Assembly: GCA_041917855.1 (NCBI GenBank)
Contig: JAYRWT010000072.1
Coordinates: 1-42,912, forward strand
Source: Patescibacteria group bacterium
GTDB taxonomy: Bacteria; Patescibacteriota; UBA1384; CAILIB01
Reading direction: 5' to 3'
Length of the DNA stretch: 42,912 bases
Shown here: piece by piece, positions 520-37,446 of the stretch
Position numbering within the stretch: position 1 is the first letter of the stretch
Layout of the letters: every line of letters begins with the position of its first letter
Program-made: the position numbers and the translations under genes
Notes under the pieces: generated by a model
Seen by the model: only the letters and a program-made list of their open reading frames with translations
What the model was told of the DNA's origin: nothing
Database searches by the model: none

Positions 520-549
520 GACAGGGTGCCCCCACCCTGTCTTTTGTTT
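520..549 (+). terminator. Rho-independent terminator
   Basis: GACAGGGTG (520-528) pairs with CACCCTGTC (533-541) around a CCCC loop, followed by TTTTGTTT. Confidence 0.8.
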
Positions 550-582
550 ACTTACTTTTAGTATACGACCAATAACCGCTTG

Positions 583-1881
583 TCACCTAGCTACATCCTG
601 TAACACAAGCAGTCCGTCCTTCACTCTAAACTGGCTCCGCACATACAGCAGCACTCCTCTCTTCTCCTCATCCGTCCCATTCTCCAGCGTGAACTTAAAG
701 TAATTAAAGAGTGAATCCCGACCAATCGATTCAATTTCCTCACTCGTTTTTCCCGAAACCATTGCTGTCAGCTGCGAAAGCCGCCGCATCTCGCTATTTA
801 CCTTCTTTGCCAGCTCAATCTCATCAAGTTTCAGAAGGTGCAAACTTGCCATCAGGCTTTCGGTCAACCGATCCTCCCGCAAGTACTTTGACCGACAGTT
901 GTTCACCCCATTCTGGTTTGTGCAGTGGTAGTACACGTAGCGCACGGTCTTCCCTGTTCGGAAGGTCTTAATCTTTTCAGAGGCAGTAATGCCGTGTCCG
1001 CAGTGGCCGCACTTGAGAATTCCCACATAAATAAACCGCTTGTCGCCGTAGATCGATTTCACGGGCGCGGAGATTCTGGCGCGGGCAGCAAGAAACAGTT
1101 CCTTAGTTATGAGCGGCTCATGCTTGCCCTGGTAGAACTTCCCACTCCCTTTCGGATACTCAAACTCGCCGTAATAGAACGGGTTCTTGAGCATGTTGTA
1201 GACCATGGAAAGCGTCAGCTTTTTCTCGTTGCGGGTGCGGAAGAGCTTTTCTTCATTCATCCAATTGAGAAGACGCCTGCCAGTGAGGTCGTGATAGGCA
1301 AACTGCTCGAACATTTCTTTGATGATCGGTGCGCGAACTGGATCAATGTAGATTACCTGTGAGCCTCTCGGTGCATATTTCTGGTTGATATACCCAAGCG
1401 GCGTCATGCACGGCCGCCAGCCCATCTCGCACTTGTTCTTCTGCCCGCGCAGCACGTTCTTGGTTCGGTTGTCGTTCTCAAGCTTGGCTTGGGAACAGAG
1501 GATCATGAGCAGGAACTTCTCATTTGGGTTATTAGAGAAACTCTGGCCCGGAGTGCGGATTTCCACCAGCTTTCCGGAGTCCATAAGGTCAACGATTGAA
1601 CCCAAGTCCCCTGCATTACGAGAAAGCCGGTCTGGTGCCCAGGTGAGGATTGCGTTATATTTGCCCGCCTGCAGCTCAGCTATGAGTTCGTTGTATTCCG
1701 GCCGCTGCCCCGATGCCTTGGCGCTGTGACTCTCCCGCTTTACCGCAACAATCTTGAGCTTATACTGCGCCGCGATGTCGTGCATTTCCTTGATTTGAGA
1801 GTCAATGGAAAGGGCTTGACGCTCGTCTGATTCGGATGACTTGCGGGCGTAGAGGCAGTATTTGAGTTGTGCTGTTTCCAT
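583..1881 (-). CDS. Large serine recombinase A (resolvase catalytic domain, recombinase domain and zinc ribbon)
   Basis: N-terminal YARKSSESDERQ..SIDSQ catalytic-serine motif, WAPDRLSRN, and a Cys cluster CGHCG..YYHC. The ATG at 1881 (METAQLKY...) is preferred over the TTG at 1890. Paralog of 24451-25737. Confidence 0.92.
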   Translation of the reverse strand: METAQLKYCLYARKSSESDERQALSIDSQIKEMHDIAAQYKLKIVAVKRESHSAKASGQRPEYNELIAELQAGKYNAILTWAPDRLSRNAGDLGSIVDLMDSGKLVEIRTPGQSFSNNPNEKFLLMILCSQAKLENDNRTKNVLRGQKNKCEMGWRPCMTPLGYINQKYAPRGSQVIYIDPVRAPIIKEMFEQFAYHDLTGRRLLNWMNEEKLFRTRNEKKLTLSMVYNMLKNPFYYGEFEYPKGSGKFYQGKHEPLITKELFLAARARISAPVKSIYGDKRFIYVGILKCGHCGHGITASEKIKTFRTGKTVRYVYYHCTNQNGVNNCRSKYLREDRLTESLMASLHLLKLDEIELAKKVNSEMRRLSQLTAMVSGKTSEEIESIGRDSLFNYFKFTLENGTDEEKRGVLLYVRSQFRVKDGLLVLQDVAR

Positions 1882-1924
1882 ACAACACAATCAATGTCGG
1901 AACCTCGTAGTGAAGTCTAGTAAA

Positions 1925-1954
1925 TGAAAATGCCACCCGATTTCTCGGATGGCA
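1925..1954 (-). terminator. Terminator of the sigma-factor gene (minus strand)
   Basis: TGCCACCCGA (1931-1940) pairs with TCGGATGGCA (1945-1954) with one mismatch. The A run at 1927-1930 is the T tract on the minus strand. Confidence 0.6.
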
Positions 1955-1990
1955 TGAGATTTTGAATAGAGCGTACCTTTCAGAAACAGA

Positions 1991-3457
1991 TCAGCAACAG
2001 AGGTCGAGCTCAAGTGATTCCTTACCATTCTGCTTAACAACGAGATGTGGGTACCCTCGTCGATAGAGCCCGGCTCCTTCCTGAAGGATGACGCCTCTAG
2101 CAATAAGTGCGCAGCTTATCAGGTGAACTCGTCCAACTGCTAGTTCTGCTTCTTTTGCCACTTGCTCAAAGTCAAGGTTAACCGACCTTTCTTCAGTGAG
2201 TTGCATCCAAGCCGCAGCAGCCACTGCATACTCCTGCTCAGAAAGTTGCAATCGCTTGAAGGCACCTTCTGAGATTTTCGGCTTTGATTGCACCAATTGA
2301 TCGGAATCAGCACTGACCACCTCTCTCTTGGTTGAGATCACCTGAACAATAATTGGCTTCCGAGCTTTTGGCTCTTGAACCTTTCTTTCTGGTGGAACCT
2401 TAAGCCGAGGTGCCTTGGGAGCACGAGTACGTCGTACTCGCATCTTTACCGATGGAGGAAGTCGAAGCTTAGCACGACCATACACCCGCACTTCTTCAAC
2501 AACCTTTGTTAATCGTTCAACAAAGGTCTTCCAGTCAATACCGTGTACCGCAACCAGGTCTTCACCGTCATCCTTATGCTTGTAAGGAAGTCGGATCGAC
2601 GTAATTGGGAGATCGGCACCCACACCTAGTGCAAGGCGGAGTCTCTTAATACCCATCGCAATGATCTGCCTAACTCGCTCTCTCGTTACACTGTAGTGAC
2701 GACCGATAGTCTCTAACGTCGCATCCGACGCAGAAAGCAAGATCATCTGACGTGTACGCACAGGTAGCTCATCAAGAGCAGTCTGCAGCTGACCAGTAGT
2801 CACATCAGGAGCATATTTTTCAAGTAGCTCACCAAAGGTGACTGGCTGTTTAGCGAGCATTTGCTCAAGGGCATCGGGAGTTGCTTCGTCAGCGATGAAA
2901 TCGCCGAGTTCACTTCCACCTTCAGAATCCAAGAGTATGTTACTCGATACCACAGGTGTGGGAGTGCAAAGCTCAGTGAGCTCTACTACAGCCTCTACAG
3001 GTAGACCAAGAAAAGTAGCCATCTCCTCAGTACTTGGAAAATGCCCTTCTTGTTGGAAGAATGCAATTTCAGCTTTCCTAATTTTTGCACCCATTTCACC
3101 CACATGGATGGGAATCCGAATAGGGTTTCGTGTGTTGGCGATATGCCGTGAAATCGCCTGGCGAATCCAGTAAGGTGCATACGTGCCAAAGCTAAACCCC
3201 TTAGTAGGATCGAAAAGCTCAATCGCCCTAAGTAGACCAATGGAGCCTTCTTGCACCAGTTCCTGACGAACCTCTTCATTCTCAGTCAAAGATTTTGAAA
3301 TCCGATGCGTCAGCGTCCAGTAAACAAGCCTCTGATTCATCTCGGCGATTTTGTTGCGCAGCGTTAGATCAGTTGGATTGGCCCAGTAAGCCTCCCACAA
3401 CCGAGCCTGCTCTACAGGGACGATAGTTTCCGTGGTTACGGGAGTTTCTTGTTCCAT
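1991..3457 (-). CDS. Sigma-70 family RNA polymerase sigma factor A with a C-terminal extension of about 200 aa
   Basis: Region 2 (GSIGLLRAIELFDPTKGFSFGTYAPYWIRQAISRHI), region 3 (IRIPIHVGEM) and the region 4 HTH (LETIGRHYSVTRERVRQIIAMGIKRLR) are present. They are followed by a K/R/P-rich linker and an extra domain not found in ordinary sigma factors. Confidence 0.9.
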   Translation of the reverse strand: MEQETPVTTETIVPVEQARLWEAYWANPTDLTLRNKIAEMNQRLVYWTLTHRISKSLTENEEVRQELVQEGSIGLLRAIELFDPTKGFSFGTYAPYWIRQAISRHIANTRNPIRIPIHVGEMGAKIRKAEIAFFQQEGHFPSTEEMATFLGLPVEAVVELTELCTPTPVVSSNILLDSEGGSELGDFIADEATPDALEQMLAKQPVTFGELLEKYAPDVTTGQLQTALDELPVRTRQMILLSASDATLETIGRHYSVTRERVRQIIAMGIKRLRLALGVGADLPITSIRLPYKHKDDGEDLVAVHGIDWKTFVERLTKVVEEVRVYGRAKLRLPPSVKMRVRRTRAPKAPRLKVPPERKVQEPKARKPIIVQVISTKREVVSADSDQLVQSKPKISEGAFKRLQLSEQEYAVAAAAWMQLTEERSVNLDFEQVAKEAELAVGRVHLISCALIARGVILQEGAGLYRRGYPHLVVKQNGKESLELDLCC

Positions 3458-3497
3458 ATTGTCGAAGTCCTGACGACACGAATTGTGCCGATAGTTC

Positions 3498-3526
3498 TAT
3501 ATAGCAGAATAGAGTAGTTGTATCAA
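3498..3526 (-). promoter_or_regulatory. Candidate sigma-70 promoter for sigma factor A
   Basis: On the minus strand: TTGATA (3526-3521), a 17-nt spacer, then TATATA (3503-3498). Confidence 0.45.
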
Positions 3527-3544
3527 CCACCAATCTTTAGAGAC

Positions 3545-3572
3545 TTGAATATTTCTTGGTTTCTGGTATAGT
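3545..3572 (+). promoter_or_regulatory. Candidate sigma-70 promoter for the helicase gene
   Basis: TTGAAT (3545-3550), a 16-nt spacer, then TATAGT (3567-3572). The 5' UTR contains the hairpin GGGTTACT-ttcg-AGTAACCC. Confidence 0.5.
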
Positions 3573-3637
3573 CCTGAAAGCAAATTGAAAAGGGTTACTT
3601 TCGAGTAACCCCACCTTGAAAACACGGAATTGAAATT

Positions 3638-6298
3638 ATGAAGATACACGGCACAACTGGCAGTCTCGCCTCCGATGGCGTACTGACTCCTAAAGAGCTC
3701 TCTGAGCTTAATGAGTCACAACTCAACGATGTCAGAGCCGTACAGGCATACTGGCAACAAAACGGATATGAAGAGCCGTATCCCCTCGTCATCAAGCCAA
3801 CTGGTTACGGGAAGGGGCGTGTCATTGACGCTCTCCTCCACCCCAACCAAGAACCTGGCGTCGCCCTGCTGATCGTCGGGACAAAGAACATTCTGGTGGA
3901 ACAGAATCAGGAAGGTCTCCGTTCTCTCGTTCTCGAGGAAACTGGAGAATCCCGATTCAGCATTCTTCCAGATACCTCTGGACCCGTCATCGTCGCCACA
4001 TGGCAATCAATTGAGGCATACTGGAAGAAATTCCACACACCTCCAGAGATTGACCTGGCGATCGTCGATGAAGCGCACAATGCAGGCACGAAAAAACGTC
4101 TGCGCGCATTGAAGTGGCTACAGCCCAAGAAAGTTGTCGGTCTAACTGCTACTGCTTACCGGGCAAGTGGTGACTTACGCGCACCTGAGCACTATGGCTT
4201 TCAGCCTATTGAAGAGATCACCGACACACTCCCCGCGTGCATTGAGCGCCGCTGGCTCTCACCGCTCATGGGTCTGTGTATAGATACGGAAATTGTCCTT
4301 CCGCGAGATGTAATGACCGGAGGCACTATCTCTGGAAAGAAACTTTACCGCGAAATGCGACACCATCCAGACCTCTTTGCGGGGATTGCTCAAGAGATTA
4401 GCACACGATTCCTACCAAGTGGCATGAAGACCATTGTGGTCGTCAACCGCGTGCTGGAGGAAGCGTGCGTTATCTACAAGCACCTCGAAAACATGGGTTT
4501 CACCGTTGGGTTAGCAGTCAACCAGAGTGCTTCGCGCATGCTGGAAAACTCATACGTCACGAATGGCAGTATCGAAAGGTACAAGCTTCCTCATGACGAC
4601 CCCAACTCAATCCAGGTTCTGATCTCACCCCAGGTGATTGGCGAGGGCTTTGATGCTCCAGCAACGGAATGTGTGGTCTGGGCATCACCTACCCACTCAA
4701 GCCTGCGTTACACACAGGTTATGGGAAGAGGTGCTCGCCGCTGTCCTGGCAAGGCATACTGCTTGGTCGTCGACTTCGTCTACATGATCGAAGGCTACGG
4801 CTACAGCATGAACTTTGCTCAGTTCTTCAAGCGGAATGAGATTAAGGAGCTTGAAGGAGGATTCATGTACGTGGGTCCAACTGACGGCTCATCGCCAACA
4901 ATAATCCCTGAAACTTTCACGAGAGGTGGAAGGGTTGTTGCTATTGCTAACCTGGATAGGCCAATAGTACGCGATGCGGGTGACTGGCTCGTAAGGGGTC
5001 AAATGGCCAAAATACTAGGAAAATCTCTTTCATGGGTTACCAGTCAACTGATTGGCCTAGCAATAGAAGGTGAGGAACGACTGGACTGCATAGGCCGACC
5101 TCAACTTCATTATCCGCCAAAGACCCTCGAGGTTTTACAAGCTGTGATTTCTTCCCTACCAGATGCGGGCGGCTGGATCCCAGCCGCCAACCTTGCATCA
5201 GAAGTAGGAAAAAGTCAGAGTTGGATCACCTCAGTACTTCGCCAACTCGGGATTACCTCTGAAAAACGGGTTTCTCCCACGCGGAGGGAATACGACTATT
5301 ATCCTCCAAATGTGGTTAAAATCCTGAAAGAAGAGGCTAACCGCTATCAGCCTGCTGGTGATTGGTTAACTGCGTTCCGTATCGCTGAAAGAGTCGGAAA
5401 GACACAGAAATGGGTCATTCCAGAACTTAAGCGTCTCGGTATTAAGCCCGAACAGCGTTGGTCTTCCAACGGTCACTTGAACAGTTATTACCCACCGACA
5501 GCAGTGGATCAGCTTGAAAAAGTTATTTCCGCTGCTCCAACCCAAGGTAAGTACATCACAATCCAGAAGGCAAGCGACACCCTGGGTGTAGCAAAGCAAA
5601 GGGTTAAAAAGATCCTGGATGAACTTAAGATAAAAGGGGAAGATCGATGGGTTCAAGGACAGTTGAGGAAGCATTTCTCACCACAAGAGATTGCACAGGT
5701 GAAGGCAGCGCTGGATAGCTACCCTCTCCAAGGAAACTTCCTAACACTGGTCGAACTCGCTCGAGAAGTAGGAAAGAGCACATGCTGGTGTGAGCGAAAT
5801 CTCAAGCCACTTGGGGTAAAAACTGAAGAAAGATGGACGGATAACGGATTCAAAACCTGCTATCCACCTTCGACAGTCACATCACTTAAAGAACTCTCCA
5901 CATCAGTTCCCGAGTCAGGTGACTGGCTAACTGCGGACGAGATAAGTGTGGCAATTGGCGTCAGTCCAAGATGGGTTCAACCTCGTCTTCCCGCAGAACT
6001 CGCCGAGAAGCGACTCTCAAAGAAGAAGGGTGTCTTTACTCACTACCCACCGGAAACAATTCAGATGCTGAAGTCTGAACTAGAAAGTATTCCGGCAGCC
6101 GGTGATTGGAAAACAATCAGCGGCATGGCAACTGAACTGGGCGTTGCTCATAACTGGGTTACGGCCAGGCTCGGGTCGTACCAAGATCATTGCCAGGTTC
6201 GAAGAGCAGATGACAATCGGATGTTTAATCACTACCCGCCACATGTGCTTGAGGATCTCCGTCGCCAATGGAACGAATACAAAAAGTCCCGCAAATAG
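3638..6298 (+). CDS. SF2 (DEAH / type III restriction Res-like) helicase fused to seven tandem HTH-like repeats
   Basis: Motif I is KPTGYGKGR (GKG instead of GKT/S). Motif II is IVDEAHNAG, motif III is GLTATAY and motif VI is QVMGRGARR. The C-terminal 440 aa are repeats (see the repeat feature). Confidence 0.9.
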   Translation: MKIHGTTGSLASDGVLTPKELSELNESQLNDVRAVQAYWQQNGYEEPYPLVIKPTGYGKGRVIDALLHPNQEPGVALLIVGTKNILVEQNQEGLRSLVLEETGESRFSILPDTSGPVIVATWQSIEAYWKKFHTPPEIDLAIVDEAHNAGTKKRLRALKWLQPKKVVGLTATAYRASGDLRAPEHYGFQPIEEITDTLPACIERRWLSPLMGLCIDTEIVLPRDVMTGGTISGKKLYREMRHHPDLFAGIAQEISTRFLPSGMKTIVVVNRVLEEACVIYKHLENMGFTVGLAVNQSASRMLENSYVTNGSIERYKLPHDDPNSIQVLISPQVIGEGFDAPATECVVWASPTHSSLRYTQVMGRGARRCPGKAYCLVVDFVYMIEGYGYSMNFAQFFKRNEIKELEGGFMYVGPTDGSSPTIIPETFTRGGRVVAIANLDRPIVRDAGDWLVRGQMAKILGKSLSWVTSQLIGLAIEGEERLDCIGRPQLHYPPKTLEVLQAVISSLPDAGGWIPAANLASEVGKSQSWITSVLRQLGITSEKRVSPTRREYDYYPPNVVKILKEEANRYQPAGDWLTAFRIAERVGKTQKWVIPELKRLGIKPEQRWSSNGHLNSYYPPTAVDQLEKVISAAPTQGKYITIQKASDTLGVAKQRVKKILDELKIKGEDRWVQGQLRKHFSPQEIAQVKAALDSYPLQGNFLTLVELAREVGKSTCWCERNLKPLGVKTEERWTDNGFKTCYPPSTVTSLKELSTSVPESGDWLTADEISVAIGVSPRWVQPRLPAELAEKRLSKKKGVFTHYPPETIQMLKSELESIPAAGDWKTISGMATELGVAHNWVTARLGSYQDHCQVRRADDNRMFNHYPPHVLEDLRRQWNEYKKSRK
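4973..6295 (+). repeat. Seven tandem protein-level repeats of about 62 aa (about 186-192 nt) inside the helicase ORF
   Basis: Units start near 4973, 5162, 5354, 5540, 5726, 5912 and 6095. Consensus: aGDWlt..eiA..vGks..WV...L..LGi..E.R.......YYPP..v..Lk.....P. The units are diverged at DNA level. Confidence 0.85.
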
Positions 6299-6319
6299 CA
6301 GATAAGGAAGAATCTCTGA

Positions 6320-6347
6320 AGCCCCGGCAGTCCCGGGGCTCTTTTTG
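6320..6347 (+). terminator. Rho-independent terminator after the helicase gene
   Basis: AGCCCCGG pairs with CCGGGGCT around a CAGTC loop, followed by CTTTTTGTT. Confidence 0.8.
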
Positions 6348-6389
6348 TTATTCATACTTTAGTAATCTTTTGGTTATGCTAAGCTATTG

Positions 6390-6520
6390 ATGTCTGGATC
6401 GATAACATGCGATACCCATAGCCACATGGCGATGGTTTGCTCTCACACAAGGGCAACCATCGACAAATAGCGGGAGCAATCCTGTTATCGGTCCAGACAA
6501 CCTAGATGGTTGTCCTTTTG
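6390..6520 (+). ncRNA. Structured cis-regulatory leader RNA, copy 1 (unclassified attenuator/riboswitch-like element)
   Basis: Outer stem of 17 bp (6391-6407/6483-6499). Inner hairpin 6430-6440/6453-6462. Terminator hairpin 6496-6502/6508-6514 plus a T tract. Segment 6505-6515 can alternatively pair with 6451-6461. Compensatory changes relative to copy 2 at 25954-26090. Confidence 0.6.
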
Positions 6521-6545
6521 TTTATATAAACCTAAAAGCACCCGT

Positions 6546-7163
6546 ATGCTTACTTTAATTATCGGGATTCTCTGGACTCTCTTGATCGTTGGACTTATTA
6601 GCCCAAGCTTCTTTAGTAAGATGTTTAAGGGAGAATATACCCGCAAGAAGATTGTCCTTATCTTAGTTCCCGCAATGGTTGTAATAGGAATTATCGGAGC
6701 TGCCCTTAGTCCAAAGGAAACAACAACAGACCAAGTAACGCAAACTTCCACAACGCCAACTCCAACCTCCACACCGGTTAACGTGCTTTTTGATCTATCT
6801 AACGCAAAAGGTAAAACACCTGAAGAAATCGTAGCAGCATTGGGTGAGCCAACGAAAAAATTTGAACCCAACAACACGCAGAAAGAACTAGCACAAAGTG
6901 GACAATTTAAGTATGACGTTGACTATGAATGGCACAAAGAAGACCAAATTCTCTATATGAGTTTTGACTATACAACGAAGGTTGTTAGAGATTTCTTTCT
7001 TGATTGCAGAGGTGATGGTTACGAAGGTAGCTGTAAGAATACTGAGCAAGTAATCAATCGCCTTAAAGCTCAATTGAACGCAGATACCAGCGGTATGAGA
7101 GTAGAAGCTGTCAGGGTCCTCAAAGACCCCACTAGTATTACTGGTATTAAGCTGATTCCGTAG
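6546..7163 (+). CDS. Membrane-anchored secreted protein, unknown function
   Basis: The ATG at 6546 lies downstream of the leader terminator, whereas the track start at 6510 lies inside the terminator hairpin. It has two N-terminal hydrophobic segments, a T/P-rich linker and a globular C-terminal domain. Confidence 0.7.
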   Translation: MLTLIIGILWTLLIVGLISPSFFSKMFKGEYTRKKIVLILVPAMVVIGIIGAALSPKETTTDQVTQTSTTPTPTSTPVNVLFDLSNAKGKTPEEIVAALGEPTKKFEPNNTQKELAQSGQFKYDVDYEWHKEDQILYMSFDYTTKVVRDFFLDCRGDGYEGSCKNTEQVINRLKAQLNADTSGMRVEAVRVLKDPTSITGIKLIP

Positions 7164-7701
7164 GTTCCTTAATTCCTAAAAGCTGACTCAACAACCGGCC
7201 ATTTTGCTCCAGCTGCTCTTTCACCTCAGCTTTAGCCTCAATATCGCGGAGGAACAGCTGATCCTTCGGTCGCATGAGGTTCATATCCATGCGCTCTAGA
7301 ATGAACTTAGCGGCGGCAAGATCCCCTGCCGCAACAGCCGAAGCCAGTAGCCCATAAGAAGCTGCAACAAGACTGTCTTTCTCCGCTGTTACCTCCACAC
7401 CAACACGCTCGGGCGGCAACTTATACTCCCCATCCCGCCGCGACAGGTGGTAGCGAATCGCCCACGACTCCCCTTGGTCAATCTTCTGCAGCAGACGAGA
7501 ACGCGCCAAATCGTTCACTTCTTGGGTGCCGAGCATATGTGCCTCATCTGCCGCTTCCTTAAATGTCGGGTCGTCCTTGTACCAGCGGTAGTACTGGGCT
7601 TTGGACAGACCCGCCCGCTTGCATGCCGCACTCACAATCCCGTGCTTCGAGAGCTCCTCAAGCAGCGCTTTGGTCACCGATTTGCGCTGCCGCTGGTTCA
7701 T
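7147..7701 (-). CDS. Terminase small subunit-like HTH protein A
   Basis: N-terminal HTH (GIVSAACKRAGLSKAQYYRWYKDDPTFKEA) of the type seen in phage TerS / phBC6A51-type HTH proteins. Its start overlaps the upstream stop (ATGA). Paralog of 28502-28945. Confidence 0.6.
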   Translation of the reverse strand: MNQRQRKSVTKALLEELSKHGIVSAACKRAGLSKAQYYRWYKDDPTFKEAADEAHMLGTQEVNDLARSRLLQKIDQGESWAIRYHLSRRDGEYKLPPERVGVEVTAEKDSLVAASYGLLASAVAAGDLAAAKFILERMDMNLMRPKDQLFLRDIEAKAEVKEQLEQNGRLLSQLLGIKEPTESA

Positions 7702-28497: not shown

Positions 28498-28501
28498 AGG
28501 G

Positions 28502-28945
28502 TTATTCGTTACTAATAGATGGTTCGTTAGTTAAGCTCGCAAGCCGCAATGCCTGCATCACGGTTTCCGCCTGCTCAGGAGTCAGTTCTTCGGGAACCGA
28601 CTTCAGGTGGGCGTTCACCTCCACCTTGGTGGCGTAGGCCGGGTGGTGGTGCTTGAGCCAGAAGATGATGGCGGTCAGGTTCTTGTCCCGGATCGCCGCC
28701 ATCAGCTGAGACTCGGCCATGTCGTTTACAAGCAAGTTTCCATCGAGCAACGCTTCGTCCACCTTCTCTCCAAACTCCTTGTCTTCCTTCTTCCAGCGGT
28801 AAAACGAGGTTCTGCCGATCCCCACTTTCTCGCAGGCCACCTGGACTATGGGAGTCTTTTTTAATTGCTCCAACAGGGCCGCTTTGGCAGTTTCCTGCTT
28901 TTGCTCCACCACGCCCTTCGGTGGGACTTCGCGGGAAGTATTCAT
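28502..28945 (-). CDS. Terminase small subunit-like HTH protein B
   Basis: HTH IVQVACEKVGIGRTSFYRWKKEDKEFGEKV. It lies directly upstream of terL, and its start overlaps the upstream stop (ATGA). Confidence 0.6.
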   Translation of the reverse strand: MNTSREVPPKGVVEQKQETAKAALLEQLKKTPIVQVACEKVGIGRTSFYRWKKEDKEFGEKVDEALLDGNLLVNDMAESQLMAAIRDKNLTAIIFWLKHHHPAYATKVEVNAHLKSVPEELTPEQAETVMQALRLASLTNEPSISNE

Positions 28946-29724: not shown

Positions 29725-29729
29725 AGTAG

Positions 29730-31025: not shown

Positions 31026-31050
31026 ATATTTCCTTTCCTGGTTACTTACT

Positions 31051-31077
31051 AAAAAACTCACCTTCTTATGAGGTGAG
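31051..31077 (-). terminator. Rho-independent terminator (minus strand)
   Basis: CTCACCT (31057-31063) pairs with AGGTGAG (31071-31077). The A6 run at 31051-31056 is the T tract on the minus strand. Confidence 0.65.
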
Positions 31078-31112
31078 CCTAACCTAGGTGGTTTGGGGAA
31101 TAACAGGAACTT

Positions 31113-31754
31113 TTAGGGAATCTTGGGGAATTCTTTCAGTTGGACTGTGTCCTTCAGGTATACCCTGCCTCCCCGACAACGGAGCTTTCCCTGTAACTTC
31201 GTGGTCTTCTTAATGGCCTTTAAGGATTCGTGTAATAGGATGGTGGCCTCGGCTGAGTTCGGCTTGATTCCCAGGTAACCAAGCGCCTCTTCACGCGGCA
31301 TTGAACCGCTAGCTACCAAATGGGCGAAGAACTGCCCGTAGGTAGGGTTAGAGAAGTAGAAATCCTTCCCATTTATCGAGCCTTCTGCAGTTACCGGAGA
31401 GTACGTATTAGCCGGAAGCTGAGGCAGCAGGATCTGTCCGCTTGGCTGGACCGCCACTCGTGGTCCCACTTCTTGGCCCGGCGGGATGGCCGGCAACTGC
31501 TCCAGGACGATCCGCATGGTGGGAAGCGTAACCCGCAAGGCTTCGGACAGCTGGACGGCGATCCGCTCCTGCCACTGGCGCATGGCCTCAACCATACGCA
31601 TGATCGGCTCGGCAACGATCCTGGCCCAATCCACCATCTTGATGATCTGCTGTGCCCACCCCTCAATCCGCCGGTGCAGAATCACCAGGTGCTCTATGTC
31701 CCTTGGGGAAAGAACGTAGCGGTCAGTCCGGACTGTTAGGGATGAGGTAGTCAT
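31113..31754 (-). CDS. Hypothetical protein (213 aa), divergent from the repressor gene
   Basis: Long ORF with no recognised motif. It appears to be leaderless, with TACCAT ending 6 nt before the ATG. Confidence 0.6.
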   Translation of the reverse strand: MTTSSLTVRTDRYVLSPRDIEHLVILHRRIEGWAQQIIKMVDWARIVAEPIMRMVEAMRQWQERIAVQLSEALRVTLPTMRIVLEQLPAIPPGQEVGPRVAVQPSGQILLPQLPANTYSPVTAEGSINGKDFYFSNPTYGQFFAHLVASGSMPREEALGYLGIKPNSAEATILLHESLKAIKKTTKLQGKLRCRGGRVYLKDTVQLKEFPKIP

Positions 31755-31760
31755 ACCGCT

Positions 31761-31789
31761 ATGGTACTACAATACGGCCCTGCTGTAAA
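31761..31789 (-). promoter_or_regulatory. Leftward promoter of the divergent switch region (leaderless)
   Basis: On the minus strand: TTTACA (31789-31784), a 17-nt spacer, then TACCAT (31766-31761), then 6 nt to the ATG at 31754. Confidence 0.5.
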
Positions 31790-31800
31790 CGACTTTTACA
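31784..31800. promoter_or_regulatory. Palindromic operator candidate
   Basis: TGTAAA-cgact-TTTACA. Its left arm is the -35 of the leftward promoter. Confidence 0.5.
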
Positions 31801-31807
31801 CACGTTA

Positions 31808-31836
31808 TTCACAAGTTGTACACACCCTGCTATAGT
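31808..31836 (+). promoter_or_regulatory. Rightward promoter of the repressor-CBASS operon (leaderless)
   Basis: TTCACA (31808-31813), a 17-nt spacer, then TATAGT (31831-31836), then 6 nt to the ATG at 31843, with no Shine-Dalgarno sequence. Confidence 0.55.
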
Positions 31837-31842
31837 TAGCTC

Positions 31843-32484
31843 ATGAACACCATCCAAGACCGCCTCCTCTCCCTTGCGAGCCAGCACGACCTCAGCAAAC
31901 TGAGCCTTAGACAGATCGCCAAGATGGCAGGCGTCGAGCACGCCCAGACCGTCAAATACCACCTGAAAAAGCTGGTGGACGCTGGGAAGATCCGAAGCGT
32001 AGGCGGTGCGATCAAGGTGGTAAGCCGAGGGGTTGAGGGAAGCCTCCTTTCCCTACCAATACTTGGGAGCGCTAACTGCGGGACTGCTGCACGATTCGCT
32101 GAAGAGCAGGTAGAAGGCTTCATCCAGGTATCCTCCAGGCTGCTGCCGTCCAGCCGAGACCTGTTCGTAGTCCGGGCCGTCGGCAATTCCATGAACCAGG
32201 CAGATATTTCCGGTCGCACGATTGAGGACGGCGACTACGTGGTGGTGAAGAATACCACCGAGGCTCCCTGCAATGGTGACTATGTCCTCTCGATCATTGG
32301 CGGCTGCGCCAACATAAAGCGGTTTTACCAGGATACCACCCACGAAACCGTCCTGCTCATCTCAGAATCAACTGAGAAGGAGCTACACCCACCTATCGCC
32401 ATCCACCCCGAGGACGATTATATAGTGAACGGCAGGGTCGTGAATGTGATCAAGATGCAGGCAGTGGCCGGAGGGGAAGCATGA
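31843..32484 (+). CDS. LexA/CI-type repressor (winged-helix DNA-binding domain plus S24 self-cleaving peptidase)
   Basis: N-terminal LexA-type wHTH (LSLRQIAKMAGVEHAQTVKYHLKKLVDAGKI), a linker (PILGSANCGTAARFAEE), the Ser nucleophile motif GNSM and the Lys motif ANIKRF. Confidence 0.85.
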   Translation: MNTIQDRLLSLASQHDLSKLSLRQIAKMAGVEHAQTVKYHLKKLVDAGKIRSVGGAIKVVSRGVEGSLLSLPILGSANCGTAARFAEEQVEGFIQVSSRLLPSSRDLFVVRAVGNSMNQADISGRTIEDGDYVVVKNTTEAPCNGDYVLSIIGGCANIKRFYQDTTHETVLLISESTEKELHPPIAIHPEDDYIVNGRVVNVIKMQAVAGGEA

Positions 32485-33407
32485 CCGAGGCCGAATTTGA
32501 AGCATTGCTCAGGAATTGGTCAGGACCCTCAAGCGACACCGAGCAGGAGAAGCAGGAAAACGCCGAACGTCTTATCGGGGAAGCCATCCGTGAGCATGAA
32601 GGATTGGCTGCAAGGAACGTCCAGGTATTTGCCCAAGGCTCATACCGCAACAATACCAACGTAAGGCAGGACAGCGACGTCGACATCTGTGTCTGCCTGT
32701 ACGATTCGTTCTTTTACGACCACTCCTCCCTGCCCGCATTCAGCACCAGCGAGGCAGGCATATCGGACAATCCCTACCCTTATAACCAGTTCAGGACGGA
32801 CGTACATACCGCACTTATCGACAAGTTCGGCAGACCATCAGTAAAGAACGGGAACAAGGCGTTCGACGTCAAGGAATCCTCAACTCGGATCGCCGCGGAC
32901 GTCGTACCCTGCTTCGAGTACCGCGAGTACACCTTCCGCGATTATAACGGCGTTTATTCTTACGAATCTGGGACCCAGCTCATCACGGGTGAAGGGCAGG
33001 TCATCATCAACTGGCCTGAGCACCATTACCGGAACGGCGTTGCGAAGAACAACGTCACGGGAAAGCGTTTCAAGTCCGTGGTCCGGATTTTGAAGCGACT
33101 GCGCTACCGCATGGCAGACCAGGGAGTATACGCTGCGGACCGGGTTCCTTCCTACCTGGTTGAGTGCCTTGTCTGGAATGTATCTGACGATCTTTTCAAT
33201 GACACCTACCTATCAAAAGACGTTTACAACGTGCTTGCTATTCTAAAGGTCTTCTTGGCAAACCCATACAATTATCCTCACGTAAACAACTTCATGGAGG
33301 TGAATGGCCGCAAGCGCCTCTTCGACCCAGGCCAATCGTGGACACGGGAAGACGCCCTCGCATTCATAAATGCCGCTTACGCCGAATTTGCTAGGATGGC
33401 GCCATGA
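32481..33407 (+). CDS. cdnE: CD-NTase (SMODS nucleotidyltransferase), CdnE-like
   Basis: QGSYRNNTNVRQDSDVDICV (GS...DxD; Asp codons at 32676-32684), a third acidic motif AADVVPCFEY, and later NWPEHHYRNGVAKN and PSYLVECLVWNV, as recalled for clade E cyclases. The start overlaps the repressor stop (ATGA) after GGAGGGGA. Confidence 0.8.
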   Translation: MTEAEFEALLRNWSGPSSDTEQEKQENAERLIGEAIREHEGLAARNVQVFAQGSYRNNTNVRQDSDVDICVCLYDSFFYDHSSLPAFSTSEAGISDNPYPYNQFRTDVHTALIDKFGRPSVKNGNKAFDVKESSTRIAADVVPCFEYREYTFRDYNGVYSYESGTQLITGEGQVIINWPEHHYRNGVAKNNVTGKRFKSVVRILKRLRYRMADQGVYAADRVPSYLVECLVWNVSDDLFNDTYLSKDVYNVLAILKVFLANPYNYPHVNNFMEVNGRKRLFDPGQSWTREDALAFINAAYAEFARMAP

Positions 33408-34033
33408 AGAGCAGCCCAATAACACCCCTTGCCCAAAAGGCCTCGCTATTCTTTTTTGCCCTTTTGTGGGCGGCATTCGTTATCTATAAAAACGAAAGCC
33501 TTACCTTCAACGCTGATTCTCTTATGCAGCTACCTGCCGCCTACGGCGTCTATGTTATATGTACAGAAATCTTCAAAAGGTGGCTGTGGCGCTTGTCCTT
33601 CCTGCGAGGGTGGATAGTTAGGATTCCCAATATCCAGGGAACCTGGTCCGGAACCCTCCAGACCACCTGGAAAGACGCGGACGGCAATACCCCAGGTCCT
33701 ATACCTATTACATTTGCCGTTCGACAAACCTTGGACTCGGTAAGCTGCCGTCTCTATACCCAGGAATCGGGCAGCTACAGCACGTCAGCCCAGATCGAAG
33801 AGGATGACGCGAGTGGCATTTTCCGACTGCATTTCTCCTACCTCAATACCCCGAAGTCATCCGTGCAGCATCGGAGCGAGATCCATGCGGGTGCCGCAGA
33901 CCTGCAGATAATCGAGAAGCCGTCCAAACGTCTCGCTGGCAATTACTGGACGAGCCGAAAGTCCACCGGGGATATGGAGCTGACTTTCAAGTCATCTGAG
34001 ATCGCTCAGCAATTTGAAGATGAATTAGCATAA
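33404..34033 (+). CDS. cap15: Cap15-type (S-2TMbeta) CBASS effector: two N-terminal TM helices plus a beta-rich C-terminal domain
   Basis: The TM helices are ASLFFFALLWAAFVIY and LPAAYGVYVICTEIF. The C-terminal region has GTWSGTL...AGNYWTSRKSTGDMELTF. The start overlaps the cyclase stop (ATGA). Confidence 0.7.
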   Translation: MKSSPITPLAQKASLFFFALLWAAFVIYKNESLTFNADSLMQLPAAYGVYVICTEIFKRWLWRLSFLRGWIVRIPNIQGTWSGTLQTTWKDADGNTPGPIPITFAVRQTLDSVSCRLYTQESGSYSTSAQIEEDDASGIFRLHFSYLNTPKSSVQHRSEIHAGAADLQIIEKPSKRLAGNYWTSRKSTGDMELTFKSSEIAQQFEDELA

Positions 34034-34148
34034 CGCCTTACCGGTCCTAATTAATGCTAGAGCCGCCTGAAAGCGACTTTACTTCTATCCCCGAACCAAG
34101 CTACAACAGAGTACGACCTGGAGGCCAGGTTCCAGCCTAGTAGCTTAT

Positions 34149-34394
34149 ATGGATCACAAAACAAGAGAAATCCACCAAAAAATAATCCGCGTCACCCATT
34201 TCCTGCAGATTGCGGAGCGGCATATGTCTAAACTCTACGAGCTCGTGGGAACTGAAGCAATGGAAAGCCACTTGGAGCTGCTGGGAAAAATCACCGACAT
34301 CTACGAGGATGAGCTGTCAGCTCTCATTACCGGTACTAGGCCTTCGACTTCACCGCCTTCTTCTGAGCCATCGCCGCTAACTCTTCCTCAATGA
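34149..34394 (+). CDS. Possible small helical protein (81 aa)
   Basis: Open frame only. There is no RBS, and its last 59 nt overlap the convergent gene. Confidence 0.3.
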   Translation: MDHKTREIHQKIIRVTHFLQIAERHMSKLYELVGTEAMESHLELLGKITDIYEDELSALITGTRPSTSPPSSEPSPLTLPQ

Positions 34395-34896
34395 CGGCTG
34401 CAAAATTGGGATTCTCTTTTCTCAGAAATACCAGTTCCCCACTCTTGGGGATTATTCGGGCTTTGAGCTTTCCCTGCCTCACCAGCTTCTTGAGCGTTAC
34501 CGTCCGGATGTCTAGCTTCCAGGCCAGAGTGGAGCCGAGGATATGCTCCTTGTTGTCTTTATCTTTTATGACCGAGGCCGGCACTATCCTCTTGTCGATC
34601 GCTTCCTGGCAAGCCAGGCATTTCATTCCGTGCTTGTCGTACCACATCGGCTGGTCTTGAGAGCTGTGGCAAAGAGCACATGTCCGGCCCTCGCCCTGCA
34701 TTTGAAATCCATTGGGATGGTCTTTTAACTTAGCTTTTCGACGCTGTTCTTCTTGGTCTATTTCAATGAAAACCTCGAACAGCCTTACTAACTTCTCCGC
34801 TGATTCCCTGGCCTCTGAGTCACTCTTGAATTCTATTCCTTTCTCCTTGGCAATTTCTTTGAATTCTTCCATCAGCTCGTCGCTTATCCTGGCCAT
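34336..34896 (-). CDS. Zinc-ribbon protein with a C-terminal HTH-like region (186 aa)
   Basis: The ATG at 34896 follows GAAAGGAG. It has CALC...CLAC four-Cys spacing. The track start at 34953 adds 19 residues without an RBS. Confidence 0.65.
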   Translation of the reverse strand: MARISDELMEEFKEIAKEKGIEFKSDSEARESAEKLVRLFEVFIEIDQEEQRRKAKLKDHPNGFQMQGEGRTCALCHSSQDQPMWYDKHGMKCLACQEAIDKRIVPASVIKDKDNKEHILGSTLAWKLDIRTVTLKKLVRQGKLKARIIPKSGELVFLRKENPNFAAVIEEELAAMAQKKAVKSKA

Positions 34897-35101
34897 GCTA
34901 CTCCTTTCTGTATTAGGTATTTGATGGCTTGAAGATAGCAGAAATCGGAACACTTCTTTTTTTATAGTGTTCCGCGTGTTCCATTTTTTACTGCCGAAAG
35001 GTTCCAGAAACGACCGTTTCCCATCCGAAATCCCCCTATTCTATAGGGGTACCCAAACCGTCCCGAAAGTGGCGAGACCGCGATGCTCTACCAAAGAAAA
35101 G

Positions 35102-35130
35102 GCCCGACTTTCCGTCCGGGCTTTTTCTTT
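35102..35130 (+). terminator. Orphan terminator-like hairpin
   Basis: GCCCGAC-tttcc-GTCCGGGC (one bulge), followed by TTTTTCTTTT. No annotated gene ends here on either strand. Confidence 0.5.
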
Positions 35131-35259
35131 TGACACAATTATCAAATACATAAATTAAAATATAGTTCACACATATCAAAATCTCATTGACATTTTGCTT
35201 ATTTTCAGGTAAAAGGAGGAAGTCTTCGCTGAGGAGACGAAATCTAAAAACGGGAGAAG

Positions 35260-36276
35260 GTGCTACCTACTACTATGTCCGCTAAAAGTGATTCCTATAC
35301 TTCGCGGGAGACATGGTTACAGTACCGTGCATCTCCCTCTGATAAGCTGCGCAACGAAATTGCCCAGCAAAACTACCGCTTGGTTCCTCTCGTTCTGAGT
35401 CGCGCTTTTAGTCAAATCCCTATTGAGTGGCAAGAAGATTTGCTGCAAGAAGGATGGATTGGACTACTACGTGCGGTGGAACGATATGATTGTGACGATG
35501 AGAGCCAGGCGTCTTTTTCGACCTTTGCTTTCTACGTGATTCGTCAAAGTATGGGCCGCTACCTTGATAACACAAGAAGCACCATACGCCTACCTGTTCA
35601 TATCAGTGATCAGATTCGCCGAGTCGAAAGACTTCGGACAATCTATATCCATCAAAATGGTTCGGTTCCCAGTTTGGAGGAATTATCAGAGTTCACAGGG
35701 ATCCCGGAACTTAAACTCTTTGAGTTATCCCTGGCAGCAGATACTAGTAATCCTGGCTCACTTGAGGCCCCCATGGGCAGCGAGGACTCAGTCACACTCT
35801 ACGACCTACTGCAGAATCCTGATGCCACCGACCCGCTAACAGAACTACTCAGCAAAGGTGCGCAACACCTCCCTGACGACGTAAGCCTGGAAGCACTCTC
35901 GATGGTTCTCCGGGAGCTATCTACCGAAGAGTACGAAATCCTCATCCGCCGCGCCAATGAAGAAACTCTTGCTTTGATTGGACAACGATTTGGTTACACC
36001 CGTGAGTACATACGACAAAAAGAGAGTAGAGCCCTAGCCTATGTCCGTGGCCGCTTTGGCTACCGACTCATTGGTAAGGAAATCGTAAAGTGGGAGGAAG
36101 TTGCTCCTGTTGTGGTAAAAATCACACAGGAAACAAAGCCACCCACTAGATCTGAGTACTCAAAATCAAGCAATGAAAAGGTAGGACAACCAAAAAATCG
36201 CGTCCAACCAAAACCAAAGCGAGGATTGCGCTCAGAACTACGACGAGCCCTCGACAGGCTCAAACACAGGAAATGA
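35260..36276 (+). CDS. Sigma-70 family RNA polymerase sigma factor B
   Basis: Region 2 (EGWIGLLRAVERYD...FSTFAFYVIRQSMGRYL), region 3 (IRLPVHISDQIRRV) and the region 4 HTH (LALIGQRFGYTREYIRQKESRALAYVR), plus a K/P-rich tail. The start is either the GTG at 35260 or the ATG at 35275. Confidence 0.88.
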   Translation: MLPTTMSAKSDSYTSRETWLQYRASPSDKLRNEIAQQNYRLVPLVLSRAFSQIPIEWQEDLLQEGWIGLLRAVERYDCDDESQASFSTFAFYVIRQSMGRYLDNTRSTIRLPVHISDQIRRVERLRTIYIHQNGSVPSLEELSEFTGIPELKLFELSLAADTSNPGSLEAPMGSEDSVTLYDLLQNPDATDPLTELLSKGAQHLPDDVSLEALSMVLRELSTEEYEILIRRANEETLALIGQRFGYTREYIRQKESRALAYVRGRFGYRLIGKEIVKWEEVAPVVVKITQETKPPTRSEYSKSSNEKVGQPKNRVQPKPKRGLRSELRRALDRLKHRK

Positions 36277-36277
36277 A

Positions 36278-37285
36278 ATGACGATGATTACGATACAAGG
36301 AGCCAGCCTGCTTAAGCAGCATGGGGCGACCGTATATTCTTTCAAAATTAGCGCTGCAGAGTTCCTAGGCCGAGGAAATGTTGAGCGGTTGAGTGAAGGA
36401 AATCGGGAGGATGCCATACAACGGGACCTCATTGAGAACCATGCACTCAACATTGCTGCTGCGATGCTTGACCCCTCGGTCCTTTGGCCAGATTCTCTGG
36501 TCATTGCACTGAGTCACGAGCCCAAGGTTAAGAATGGCCAACTCAGCCTTCCCGACGTCTACTCATTCTTGGTAGATGATGGCCAACATCGCTTGTATGG
36601 CCTACGCATCATACAAGAAATGGGAGACAAGATCCCTGATATTGAGTTCCAGGTGTTCGCCACTTTTGGGCTTAGTGTCGAGGAGCGAGTTCAACTCTTC
36701 AAACTGCAGACTAAGCGTAAGGCCGTCACGCGAGACTTCAGTCTTGCGCTGTCGGACAAAGCGAATAGTCACAAGAATGAAGCTGAGGCTCGTGCGTACG
36801 CGGTTGTCATGATACTGGCCAAAAATAGTGATTCACCGCTACAAAGCCACATTGCCCTGCCTGGTCGGTCTAAGCAGATCGGTCAGCAGACCTGCTGGCT
36901 CAGCACCTCGGTTGTTGTTACCATGCTCCGCCCCATGTTTGCCCCAAAGGCACCCTGGACAGAGCTCAGTAATGATGAAGCAGCCAGGGCTCTCATGTGC
37001 TACTTCGACGAGCTCCTCAACATGTGGTCAAACGCATGGAGAAACCCCGACGAGTATGTACTATGTGGCAACCGGGCCATATGCGCACTCATCACAATGC
37101 TCACAGCCAAGCGTTCGCGTATTCATATTCGGTCATTCCGAGACGAAGCCGCGATACGCCAATTCGCTCGACTCTTTTCAGGGTTCAAGTGGAGCAAAAG
37201 CGTACGACAGAGAAACACCACACGCCAGATGGAGAACGCACTGTTCACTTTTCTGGAGGGATCGATCGAACGAGGTCAATCCTGA
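36278..37285 (+). CDS. DGQHR-domain protein (DndB-like, ParB/Srx superfamily)
   Basis: Exact DGQHR motif (FLVDDGQHRLYGL). The ATG lies 1 nt after the sigma factor stop. Confidence 0.8.
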   Translation: MTMITIQGASLLKQHGATVYSFKISAAEFLGRGNVERLSEGNREDAIQRDLIENHALNIAAAMLDPSVLWPDSLVIALSHEPKVKNGQLSLPDVYSFLVDDGQHRLYGLRIIQEMGDKIPDIEFQVFATFGLSVEERVQLFKLQTKRKAVTRDFSLALSDKANSHKNEAEARAYAVVMILAKNSDSPLQSHIALPGRSKQIGQQTCWLSTSVVVTMLRPMFAPKAPWTELSNDEAARALMCYFDELLNMWSNAWRNPDEYVLCGNRAICALITMLTAKRSRIHIRSFRDEAAIRQFARLFSGFKWSKSVRQRNTTRQMENALFTFLEGSIERGQS

Positions 37286-37289
37286 ACGG

Positions 37290-37328
37290 GAAGGAGGCTT
37301 ATCACACCGACAAGCCTCCTTCTTTTTG
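37290..37328 (+). terminator. Rho-independent terminator
   Basis: An 11-bp stem, GAAGGAGGCTT/AAGCCTCCTTC, followed by TTTTT. Confidence 0.85.
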
Positions 37329-37420
37329 TATACAGAGTTAACCCTAGAAGCTTACCAATTCATAACCGAGATCTGAATCTGCAGAACACTCGCTATACCG
37401 GTCCAGATACAGTAGACCAC

Positions 37421-37446
37421 GGCGATTAGCTCCTTGTGGCTGCCAG
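37421..37446. repeat. 26-bp perfect direct repeat, left copy (intergenic)
   Basis: GGCGATTAGCTCCTTGTGGCTGCCAG is identical to 38299-38324. Confidence 0.9.

Follow-up and report, generated by a model that had tools for sequence, protein, structure and literature searches.

The stretch of DNA analysed here (the window) is a complete metagenomic contig of 42,912 bp from a Patescibacteria group bacterium (JAYRWT010000072.1, assembly GCA_041917855.1), in which positions up to 37448 are occupied by two gene modules, A and B. Each module contains a large serine recombinase (LSR), a sigma-70-family factor, a helix-turn-helix (HTH) protein resembling a terminase small subunit (TerS) and a fusion of a ParB domain with a DNA methyltransferase (ParB-MTase). 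These modules had been described, in an original prediction made from the letters alone, as one tandem island running from about 547 to 37446. The Pfam, PHROG and PADLOC scans reported below were applied to all substantial open reading frames (ORFs) of the window, and related loci from other genomes and metagenomes are cited by L numbers. The core genes and the ends of the two modules are as follows.

1-212, no strand: non-coding proximal (tRNA-side) arm of A, with a terminator hairpin at 1-25, recognised from matches to L110 and L119
583-1890, minus strand: LSR A, likely start 1881 (Resolvase, Recombinase and Zn_ribbon_recom domains)
1991-3457, minus strand: sigma-70-family factor A, with regions 2, 3 and 4 and a C-terminal extension (PHROG 351, E = 3e-44)
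6510-7163, plus strand: membrane or exported protein A (65% identical to L110 8418-9026)
7147-7701, minus strand: TerS-like HTH protein A (weak Pfam HTH_Tnp_1_2 and PHROG terminase-small-subunit matches)
7698-9026, minus strand: ParB-N6/N4 methyltransferase fusion A (ParB_N and N6_N4_Mtase; PHROG 498, E = 7e-80)
24451-25857, minus strand: LSR B, likely start near 25740 (Resolvase, Recombinase and Zn_ribbon_recom domains)
26120-26578, plus strand: membrane protein B, superinfection-exclusion (Sie)-like (PHROG 8545 and 4980)
26920-28497, minus strand: terminase large subunit, TerL (PHROG 38, E = 9e-79)
28502-31061, minus strand: TerS B (28502-28945), a methyltransferase (MTase, 28942-29724) and ParB-MTase B (29730-31061) (weak HTH_Tnp_1_2 and PHROG TerS matches; ParB_N and N6_N4_Mtase)
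31843-34033, plus strand: LexA/CI-like S24 repressor, then a type I cyclic-oligonucleotide-based antiphage signalling system (CBASS; CD-NTase and Cap15 two-transmembrane (2TM) effector), in one operon (Pfam, PADLOC)
35260-37285, plus strand: sigma factor B (35260-36276) and a DndB/DpdB-like protein (Pfam, PHROG, PADLOC)
37421-37448, no strand: right end of the island, with a 27-nt copy of part of an ABC-transporter gene and the junction 37448/37449

Both recombinases, expected at 583 and 24451 with their 3' ends pointing leftward, were confirmed by their domains on the minus strand and score above the Pfam gathering thresholds of PF00239, PF07508 and PF13408, and a five-sequence alignment of A, B and three relatives retains the catalytic serine motif YARKSSES(D/E)ERQ (of the YxRxSxxxQ type) and all invariant columns. 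The sigma-70-family, TerS-like and ParB-MTase pairs were likewise recovered by the Pfam and PHROG scans, which together with PADLOC also brought out genes beyond those first listed, namely TerL, the second MTase, the LexA/CI-like repressor, the type I CBASS, the DndB/DpdB-like gene and a helicase. The by-eye estimate that the paired proteins are 55-65% identical holds for the LSRs (56% over 426 aa) and not for the remaining pairs, since the sigma factors are 32% identical, the TerS proteins 36% over 91 aa and the ParB-MTases 35%, and the exported proteins (6510-7163 and 26120-26578) have no detectable homology. LSR A, whose 432-aa form is recorded in Logan contig L118, is 95% identical to the P0121/L110 recombinase, and the closest relatives of LSR B, in L114 and L116, are 64-65% identical to it and both lie beside tRNA-Glu(ttc). 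Because A and B each have their own closer LSR relatives elsewhere, they are independently evolving, diverged elements and not products of a recent duplication, which agrees with what had been proposed. A single element with an internal partial self-duplication might be suspected from the shared gene types in the same order and on the same strand; this explanation is effectively refuted by pairs that are only 32-56% identical and by LSRs that are far closer to those of other genomes (95% for A, 65% for B) than to each other. Homology between the genes of unknown function at the distal ends of A and B was also tested, and these genes are not homologous.

A sister element of A is borne by L110, a 301-kb contig, whose LSR, ParB-MTase and TerS are 95%, 94% and 93% identical to those of A at a nucleotide identity of 82-86%. 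Read in the direction of its LSR, this locus starts with a host M23 peptidase gene, the repeat TTGGCAGGGGTAG and a copper cluster (csoR, DsbD/cupredoxin, HMA, DUF305, cupredoxin and Cu-ATPase), continues with ParB-MTase, TerS, an exported protein with the same leader as in A, a 241-aa gene, the LSR, SocA and a 139-aa gene, and ends with a 212-nt non-coding stretch, a 46-nt spacer and a tRNA-Trp(cca) gene that holds the second copy of the TTGGCAGGGGTAG repeat. The first nucleotides of the window, read from 212 to 1, are 81% identical to L110 12316-12527, 46 nt from tRNA-Trp(cca), and window 41-5, which includes the terminator, is matched by L119 8674-8710, again beside tRNA-Trp; L119 is a second relative of A (LSR 82% identical) and is likewise located at tRNA-Trp. 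As window 1-212 is homologous to the interior arm of the sister element, position 547 is not a boundary, contrary to what had been proposed, and the island runs off the contig, which by comparison with the sister elements would stop about 46 nt short of the tRNA-Trp position. Element A is predicted to belong to a tRNA-Trp type and to extend from the contig start to at most 24450, with a core at 1-9026. L110 has neither sigma factor A nor the helicase nor the genes at 9283-13586, all of which are therefore regarded as accessory, and the slot that corresponds to window 339-512 is filled in L110 by SocA_Panacea and the 139-aa gene.

The right border could be compared with island-free genomes. Contigs of four other samples (L106-L109) were reached through a 99%-identical GDH homologue, and two of them, L106 and L107, are island-free relatives that share 99% nucleotide identity with the window from 42912 down to exactly 37448, where the homology breaks to the base (37448/37449); the previously placed right end at 37446 was thus essentially exact. 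Beyond the breakpoint these relatives continue with a 33-nt terminator-like spacer, tRNA-Glu(ttc), tRNA-Lys(ctt) and a DUF4430 gene, and an apparent partial tRNA-Arg(tct), read by eye, lies at their contig end. The 3' flank of tRNA-Glu is the empty site, and element B, from 24451 to 37448, is predicted to be of a tRNA-Glu type. A canonical distal junction would have a tRNA-derived repeat and the 33-nt spacer; the right end of B has neither, and the last 27 nt of the island (37421-37447) are instead an exact copy of 38299-38325, inside the ABC-transporter gene 850 bp away, where they code for GSHKELIA. This copy may be templated filler at an illegitimate junction, and the right end of B is tentatively read as a remodelled junction; B is probably no longer excisable. 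A search of the window for att-type direct repeats at the island ends returned, besides the ABC 27-mer and the leader described below, only 11-13-mers at chance level, no tRNA gene was found in the window, and an Rfam scan gave zero matches at gathering thresholds or at E<=5, tRNA fragments included.

Between the two elements lies a large cluster of copper and redox genes, followed by the junction region.

13904-24375, minus strand: copper and redox cargo, with csoR, an HMA-domain P-type ATPase, HMA-DsbD-cupredoxin, DsbB, DsbA, DUF305 and a second ATPase (GC 53-59%)
24376-24450, no strand: csoR promoter and operators, with palindromes at 24401-24422 and 24431-24449; A/B junction region

The observation that the stop codon of LSR B (24451-24453) abuts the csoR operator palindrome (24431-24449) stands. 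No tRNA, no 3' fragment of tRNA-Trp or tRNA-Glu and no tRNA-derived repeat was found between A and B, including at 24376-24450, and the A/B junction is non-canonical. It had been proposed that the elements were integrated side by side or that one was nested at the end of the other; since A-type elements reside at tRNA-Trp and B-type elements at tRNA-Glu and no tRNA remnant lies inside the island, integration side by side at one site is set aside and the pair is not a simple same-site array. Neither the A/B junction nor the right end of B has the canonical repeats, and the pair was therefore probably fused or remodelled by a secondary rearrangement.

The ownership of the copper operon bears on how the two elements came together. 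The window cluster is collinear with that of L110 (csoR, DsbD/cupredoxin, DUF305, ATPase) at only 28-56% aa identity, and in both L110 and L116 the copper genes lie upstream of, or distal to, their own LSR and point towards it, which matches ownership by A; on the other hand, L082 has the order LSR, 54-nt gap, csoR, DUF305 and tRNA, which matches ownership by B. An interim view, taken from L082, that the operon is necessarily cargo of B was weakened by L110 and L116, and its ownership, while uncertain, appears to lean towards A. A distinctly unlikely explanation holds that A sits inside the tRNA-proximal cargo of B, in which case the copper genes would be B's, or that homologous recombination in copper cargo, by inversion or deletion, joined islands resident at different tRNAs. 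The arrangement in L082 and the 7 kb of metal-related cargo between LSR and tRNA-Glu in L116 are consistent with it, as are the unusually large copper cluster of the window, with two ATPase paralogues, and the carriage of copper genes by both kinds of element elsewhere, and its rearrangement version accounts for the missing internal att remnants. However, 9027-24450 holds no repeat derived from tRNA-Trp that would mark the distal end of A, and the closest relatives of A (L110) and of B (L116) have copper genes distal to their own LSR, which places the cluster with A. It is more improbable still that A and B are contiguous only through an assembly error, which joined elements of the tRNA-Trp and tRNA-Glu loci, or of different strains. 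Such an origin would fit the use of different tRNAs with no tRNA or att remnant between the modules; in addition, the window is a whole metagenomic contig, the only parts of it found on independent contigs of the same sample are 105-6107, 36890-38474 and 38466-42731, and contigs of relatives break at exactly the same loci. Yet neither 24376-24460 nor the rest of the sequence between the modules shows a repeat on which an assembler might go astray, and an LSR followed by a metal-resistance operon within 44-75 nt is a natural arrangement in L082 and L116.

Relatives of these recombinases are numerous. LSR homologues at E<=1e-120 amount to 4,172 proteins, the named sources being Peregrinibacteria, Gracilibacteria, Colwellbacteria and "Patescibacteria group", and an LSR-profile scan of metagenomes yielded more than 565 relatives; 80 metagenome loci of LSR relatives (L025-L104) were fetched and all their ORFs clustered. 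The only recurrent genes in this clustering are the LSR, methyltransferases, TerS, TerL and a LexA-like repressor, and the variable cargo comprises type I and type III-like restriction-modification (R-M) systems, MmeI-like enzymes, CBASS, a reverse transcriptase with an HNH nuclease, PPDK-like and copper genes. In 42 loci the sequence extends 4 kb or more upstream of the LSR; ParB-MTase and TerS lie on the same strand in 20 of them, 14 of which have TerL as well, so that the lack of TerL in module A is a normal variant within the family. The order of TerS, MTase and ParB-MTase seen in B is repeated in L009-L012 and in about 20 metagenome loci, TerL B is 45-58% identical to LSR-linked TerL genes in more than 20 loci, and the block of ParB-MTase, MTase, TerS, TerL and LSR occurs on four IMG/VR contigs at 50-58% aa identity. 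A scan of IMG/VR with the single protein LSR B gave no matches. Past TerL B, in the direction of transcription, come the Sie-like gene on the opposite strand and then the LSR. From these comparisons the recurring layout is a LexA-like repressor in some members, ParB-MTase, optional MTase, TerS, optional TerL, cargo, LSR, cargo and a convergent tRNA; a unit typically measures 10-13 kb, often has its LexA/CI-like repressor in divergent orientation and offers cargo slots on either side of the LSR.

The tRNA side of this layout is consistent across the family, as the first tRNA downstream of the LSR is convergent with it in 39 of 39 loci, at a distance of 0.1-8.4 kb. That the LSR lies at the extreme end of the element as a rule was considered and rejected, since bounded relatives have 0.3-8 kb of cargo between LSR and tRNA. 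Some units are bounded by direct repeats, which end inside the tRNA 3' end and measure 13-48 nt, in place of the few shared bases that had been assumed for the att sites of serine integrases; the following loci carry them.

L085: 48-nt repeat, tRNA-Ser T-loop, 13.2-kb unit
L067: 44-nt repeat, tRNA-Asn
L092: 22-nt repeat, tRNA-Asp
L110: 13-nt repeat, tRNA-Trp
L114: 15-nt repeat, tRNA-Glu, a complete unit and a decayed one
L073: four repeat copies, tRNA-Ser, three units (an LSR in two, of 2.6-2.9 kb, and none in the third)

For recombination of attP with attB by these LSRs, with the 2-bp crossover of their class, the evidence is indirect and consists of the repeat-bounded units beside tRNAs and of a loose correlation, given below, between LSR similarity and the neighbouring tRNA. 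Arrays of repeat-bounded units are a property of the family. In L073 (6640-14283, with the same arrangement in L077) two minimal units hold little beyond the LSR and one 2-kb unit has no LSR, a repeat of 15-22 nt lying at each junction.

Taken together, the comparisons suggest, with a probability that we put at roughly 60%, that two different elements have come to be juxtaposed in the region, both belonging to a single large family of integrative mobile elements in the Patescibacteria, or candidate phyla radiation (CPR). This family is best regarded as an LSR-driven, TerL-carrying and CPR-wide variant of satellite-like or tycheposon-like islands that target tRNA genes. A further-reaching proposal, which we put forward tentatively and at rather less than even odds, is that they constitute a CPR-wide, undescribed class of phage satellites, mobilised by LSRs that recognise tRNA 3' ends over an extended identity, which is unusual for such enzymes, equipped with TerS, TerL and ParB-MTase, devoid of capsid genes and acting as a principal vehicle of defence functions (R-M, CBASS, reverse transcriptases) and metal resistance in these very small genomes, and that in the window two of them, of different tRNA specificity, were fused by a chromosomal rearrangement and immobilised. 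In the life cycle proposed for units of the family the serine recombinase would integrate and excise the unit at its tRNA site, and the S24 repressor would hold the packaging operon silent. Upon induction or infection by a helper phage, TerS, with or without TerL, would steer element DNA into the capsids of the helper, the methyltransferases would protect element DNA, and the cargo would benefit the host through CBASS, the Sie-like protein and genes for copper export and disulfide or redox functions. No capsid, portal, tail or lysis gene was matched by Pfam or PHROG among the ORFs scanned in the window and in the bounded units L085 and L067, a lack that is not absolute because many ORFs are unannotated.

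It has to be considered whether both modules are instead decaying remnants of ordinary temperate phages (grounded prophages) and do not represent a distinct satellite-like class, an explanation that we regard as unlikely. TerL, TerS, ParB-MTase, a CI/LexA-like repressor, a Sie-like protein and an LSR are all typical prophage genes, the canonical att repeats missing at the ends of B fit decay, and on the 55.9-kb viral contig L105 (IMG/VR UViG_3300025154_002045) the same block adjoins LysM and amidase endolysin genes. On the other hand, a compact layout free of structural genes is found in about 20 independent loci, and three packaging units of 10-13 kb (L085, L067 and L110) are bounded by repeats at tRNA 3' ends; grounded prophages are disfavoured because random decay would not yield such a recurrent, compact and bounded architecture. 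The core is moreover under strong purifying selection, with 93-95% aa against 82-86% nucleotide identity between A and L110. Finally, viral contigs without an LSR that carry more distant TerL homologues (L013-L018) have a conserved gene of about 740 aa after TerL, whereas LSR-linked TerL genes are followed directly by cargo or the LSR and never by a gene of this type.

Several observations weigh against two juxtaposed members of a satellite-like family as the explanation of the region. The similarity of LSRs is no more than a loose guide to the neighbouring tRNA (nearest neighbours agree in 13 of 39 cases, permutation p = 0.0005), and LSRs that are 84% identical (L091 and L058) lie beside different tRNAs, Ser-gct and Asp-gtc; either target specificity shifts fast in the family or the target is sometimes a tRNA other than the nearest one. 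It is with tyrosine integrases and not with LSRs that long direct repeats at tRNA 3' ends are typically associated; no Phage_integrase match was found among the proteins scanned, the bounded units not having been scanned systematically for tyrosine integrases. No att repeat is present at any junction within the window itself, the A/B join is found on none of the independent contigs fetched, and the TerS assignments depend on weak HTH-type matches. TerL B is securely assigned. It is from gene content that we infer satellite behaviour of the family, and L105 may be a full prophage, in which case some family members would be parts of prophages, or else a helper-like relative. Its first 20,615 nt (1-20615) hold ParB-MTase, MTase, TerS, TerL, a type I R-M system and the LSR, convergent with a LexA-CBASS unit, and are circularly permuted with respect to module B.

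Comparison with known systems places these elements close to, and apart from, several of them. With phage-inducible chromosomal islands (PICIs), Staphylococcus aureus pathogenicity islands (SaPIs) and related satellites they share a compact size of 10-15 kb, site-specific integration, a repressor divergent from the operon that contains TerS, the lack of detected virion structural genes, accessory cargo that includes defence, and occasional tandem arrangement. They differ in having an LSR in place of a tyrosine integrase, in the full TerL and ParB-methyltransferase that most members also carry, in the lack of a recognisable primase-replication module in B and in their Patescibacteria hosts, and helper dependence is here putative. 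An own integrase together with defined att borders, as in PICIs, is found in L085, L067, L110 and L114, and the window itself has a defined right border only. PICI-like elements (PLEs) are satellites with an LSR integrase (PMC6002521) and serve as anti-phage islands. The LSR integrase is shared with the elements described here, which have no sequence relation to PLEs beyond the LSR superfamily and a different gene repertoire. PLEs integrate into repeat elements of the Vibrio superintegron and not beside tRNA genes.

Tycheposons of Prochlorococcus are associated with tRNA genes, with full and partial tRNAs at their borders, modular integration and replication genes, cargo and tandem repeat junctions (Hackl et al., bioRxiv 10.1101/2020.12.28.424599). 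Most of them (910 of 937) use tyrosine recombinases and a minority LSRs, and a PICI-like subset with TerS or a capsid gene has no extra cargo (bioRxiv 10.1101/2020.12.28.424599). The family described here is similarly tRNA-targeting, modular and array-forming, with partial tRNA copies at the far border in relatives and none in the window, but every member has an LSR, the block of ParB-MTase, TerS and TerL is no tycheposon hallmark, the units carry extra cargo, and the hosts belong to another phylum. Temperate phages with an LSR (of the phiC31, Bxb1, TP901-1 and A118 type) likewise use a three-domain LSR as integrase and have phage-type packaging genes; unlike the elements described here, they are complete with structural genes and have a short att core, mostly in protein-coding genes, in contrast to tRNA 3' ends and repeats of 13-48 nt. 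A complete prophage would have portal, capsid, tail and lysis genes adjoining its terminase; none were seen here, there being no structural matches across the 43 kb scanned. The staphylococcal cassette chromosome (SCC) elements with their Ccr recombinases are also cargo islands mobilised by serine recombinases, with tandem accretion at one site and direct-repeat borders, and differ in their target (the 3' end of rlmH), the lack of packaging genes, their recombinase subfamilies and their hosts, the Firmicutes. GenBank phages include no close relative, the best identities being 27.5% (TerL) and 27.6% (LSR), and the literature searched holds no description of an LSR-packaging element family of Patescibacteria; a survey of genomic islands in Patescibacteria includes a type I R-M island and names no recombinase or packaging gene (PMC12455944).

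The relevance of such a family lies first in the biology of its hosts. Genomes of the CPR, or Patescibacteria, measure about 1 Mb, most of these bacteria have no representative in culture, and little has been described of their mobile elements. Much of the horizontal spread of genes for defence and metal resistance in the CPR could be due to one element family, which could also provide a test case for phage-satellite biology beyond the usual model phyla. In practical terms, element borders in CPR metagenome-assembled genomes (MAGs) might be predicted from an LSR that is convergent with a tRNA, helped in some cases by a copy of the tRNA 3' end. The family is also a rich source of serine integrases that target tRNA genes and whose att sites are partly defined, and such integrases are of interest for genome engineering. 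For the window, the map is corrected to an exact right border, a left border past the contig and two tRNA specificities.

The defence and regulatory genes of B recur beyond the window. The CBASS has PADLOC scores of E = 8.5e-106 for the cyclase and E = 6.3e-63 for the 2TM effector and a Pfam Cap15_CD_rec score of E = 3.6e-22, and it is of type I, with a CD-NTase adjoining a 2TM/Cap15 effector and without Cap2, Cap3 or other ancillary genes. The trio of repressor and CBASS genes is also present in L069 (357-2457) and L105 (8205-10615), and the repressor gene is translationally coupled to the CBASS, which suggests a control of CBASS linked to the repressor. A box of 13 nt at 35172-35184, upstream of sigma factor B, is shared with the intergenic region between LSR B and the leader (25916-25928). 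Further genes of the two elements are the following.

339-512, plus strand: small YjzC-like gene (weak Pfam YjzC match), part of the cargo and not of the host flank, in the slot that separates LSR A from the tRNA
3638-6298, plus strand: superfamily 2 (SF2) helicase with a D5-like middle and a KorB-like C-terminus (ResIII and Helicase_C; PHROG 16 DNA helicase, E = 3e-35; PHROG 323, D5-like)
9283-11075, minus strand: two overlapping low-GC genes (38% GC)
11386-12817, both strands: NYN gene (11386-11925, minus) and CYTH gene (12218-12817, plus), identified by domain scan, each flanked by two motif copies
34336-34953, minus strand: Cys-rich protein, which recurs upstream of ParB-MTase in L035, L049 and L094

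The helicase is a candidate for a replication function of A. The two genes at 9283-11075 have no match in Pfam, PHROGs or PADLOC, and at 38% GC against about 50% in their flanks they are compositionally the most foreign part of the island.

Two kinds of non-coding element were found in A and B, a structured leader and a palindromic motif.

6391-6519, plus strand: structured leader A, with closing stem and terminator (A/B comparison)
25954-26088, plus strand: structured leader B (A/B comparison)
11097-11112, plus strand: motif copy 1, AGACCGTCAAGCTCTA, an imperfect palindrome (pattern count)

The two units of leader RNA and exported protein had been taken as counterparts, which is correct for the leaders, 92.5% identical over 40 nt (26049-26088 against 6481-6519), and not for the proteins that follow them, the leader preceding membrane proteins that are not homologous to each other. 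Its closing stem of 15-16 bp, in which pairing is kept through 2 compensatory changes, overlaps an intrinsic terminator, and the leader of about 130 nt, with a conserved internal GGGCAACCA...ACAA, is also present in L110 (9045-9190, minus strand) and L119 (about 1728-1822). It had no Rfam match, exact-pattern searches in other loci were also empty, and by its structure it looks like a riboswitch-type or attenuator element. The AGACCGTCACGCTCTA box, an imperfect palindrome (AGACCG-N3-CGCTCT), occurs at 11097-11112, 12020-12035, 12902-12917 and 35075-35090, that is 4 times where 0.26 occurrences would be expected, embedded in a repeat of about 100 nt and mostly just upstream of genes; a fifth copy lies in L110 (1605-1619) near its distal repeat, and 2 of the 5 copies (window 35075 and L110) stand just after a terminator hairpin. 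Tests of these repeats as tRNA fragments, attC-like sites or structured RNA gave no tRNA recognition and no conserved fold, and the box is a probable operator or promoter and not a border.

In the host flank to the right of the island, the ABC transporter shares 77-78% identity with proteins from MAGs of Berkelbacteria and Patescibacteria. The GTDB relatives of this transporter (L002-L004, 77-78%) share no synteny with the window and yielded no empty site, and exact-protein look-ups of the ABC transporter, the 57-aa gene and csoR gave no matches. In the 99%-identical relatives a 700-bp gene with an HD_3 domain (L106 11194-11893) lies between the GDH and ABC genes; it is missing at window 40036-40073, a difference that is a small strain-level indel in the host flank.

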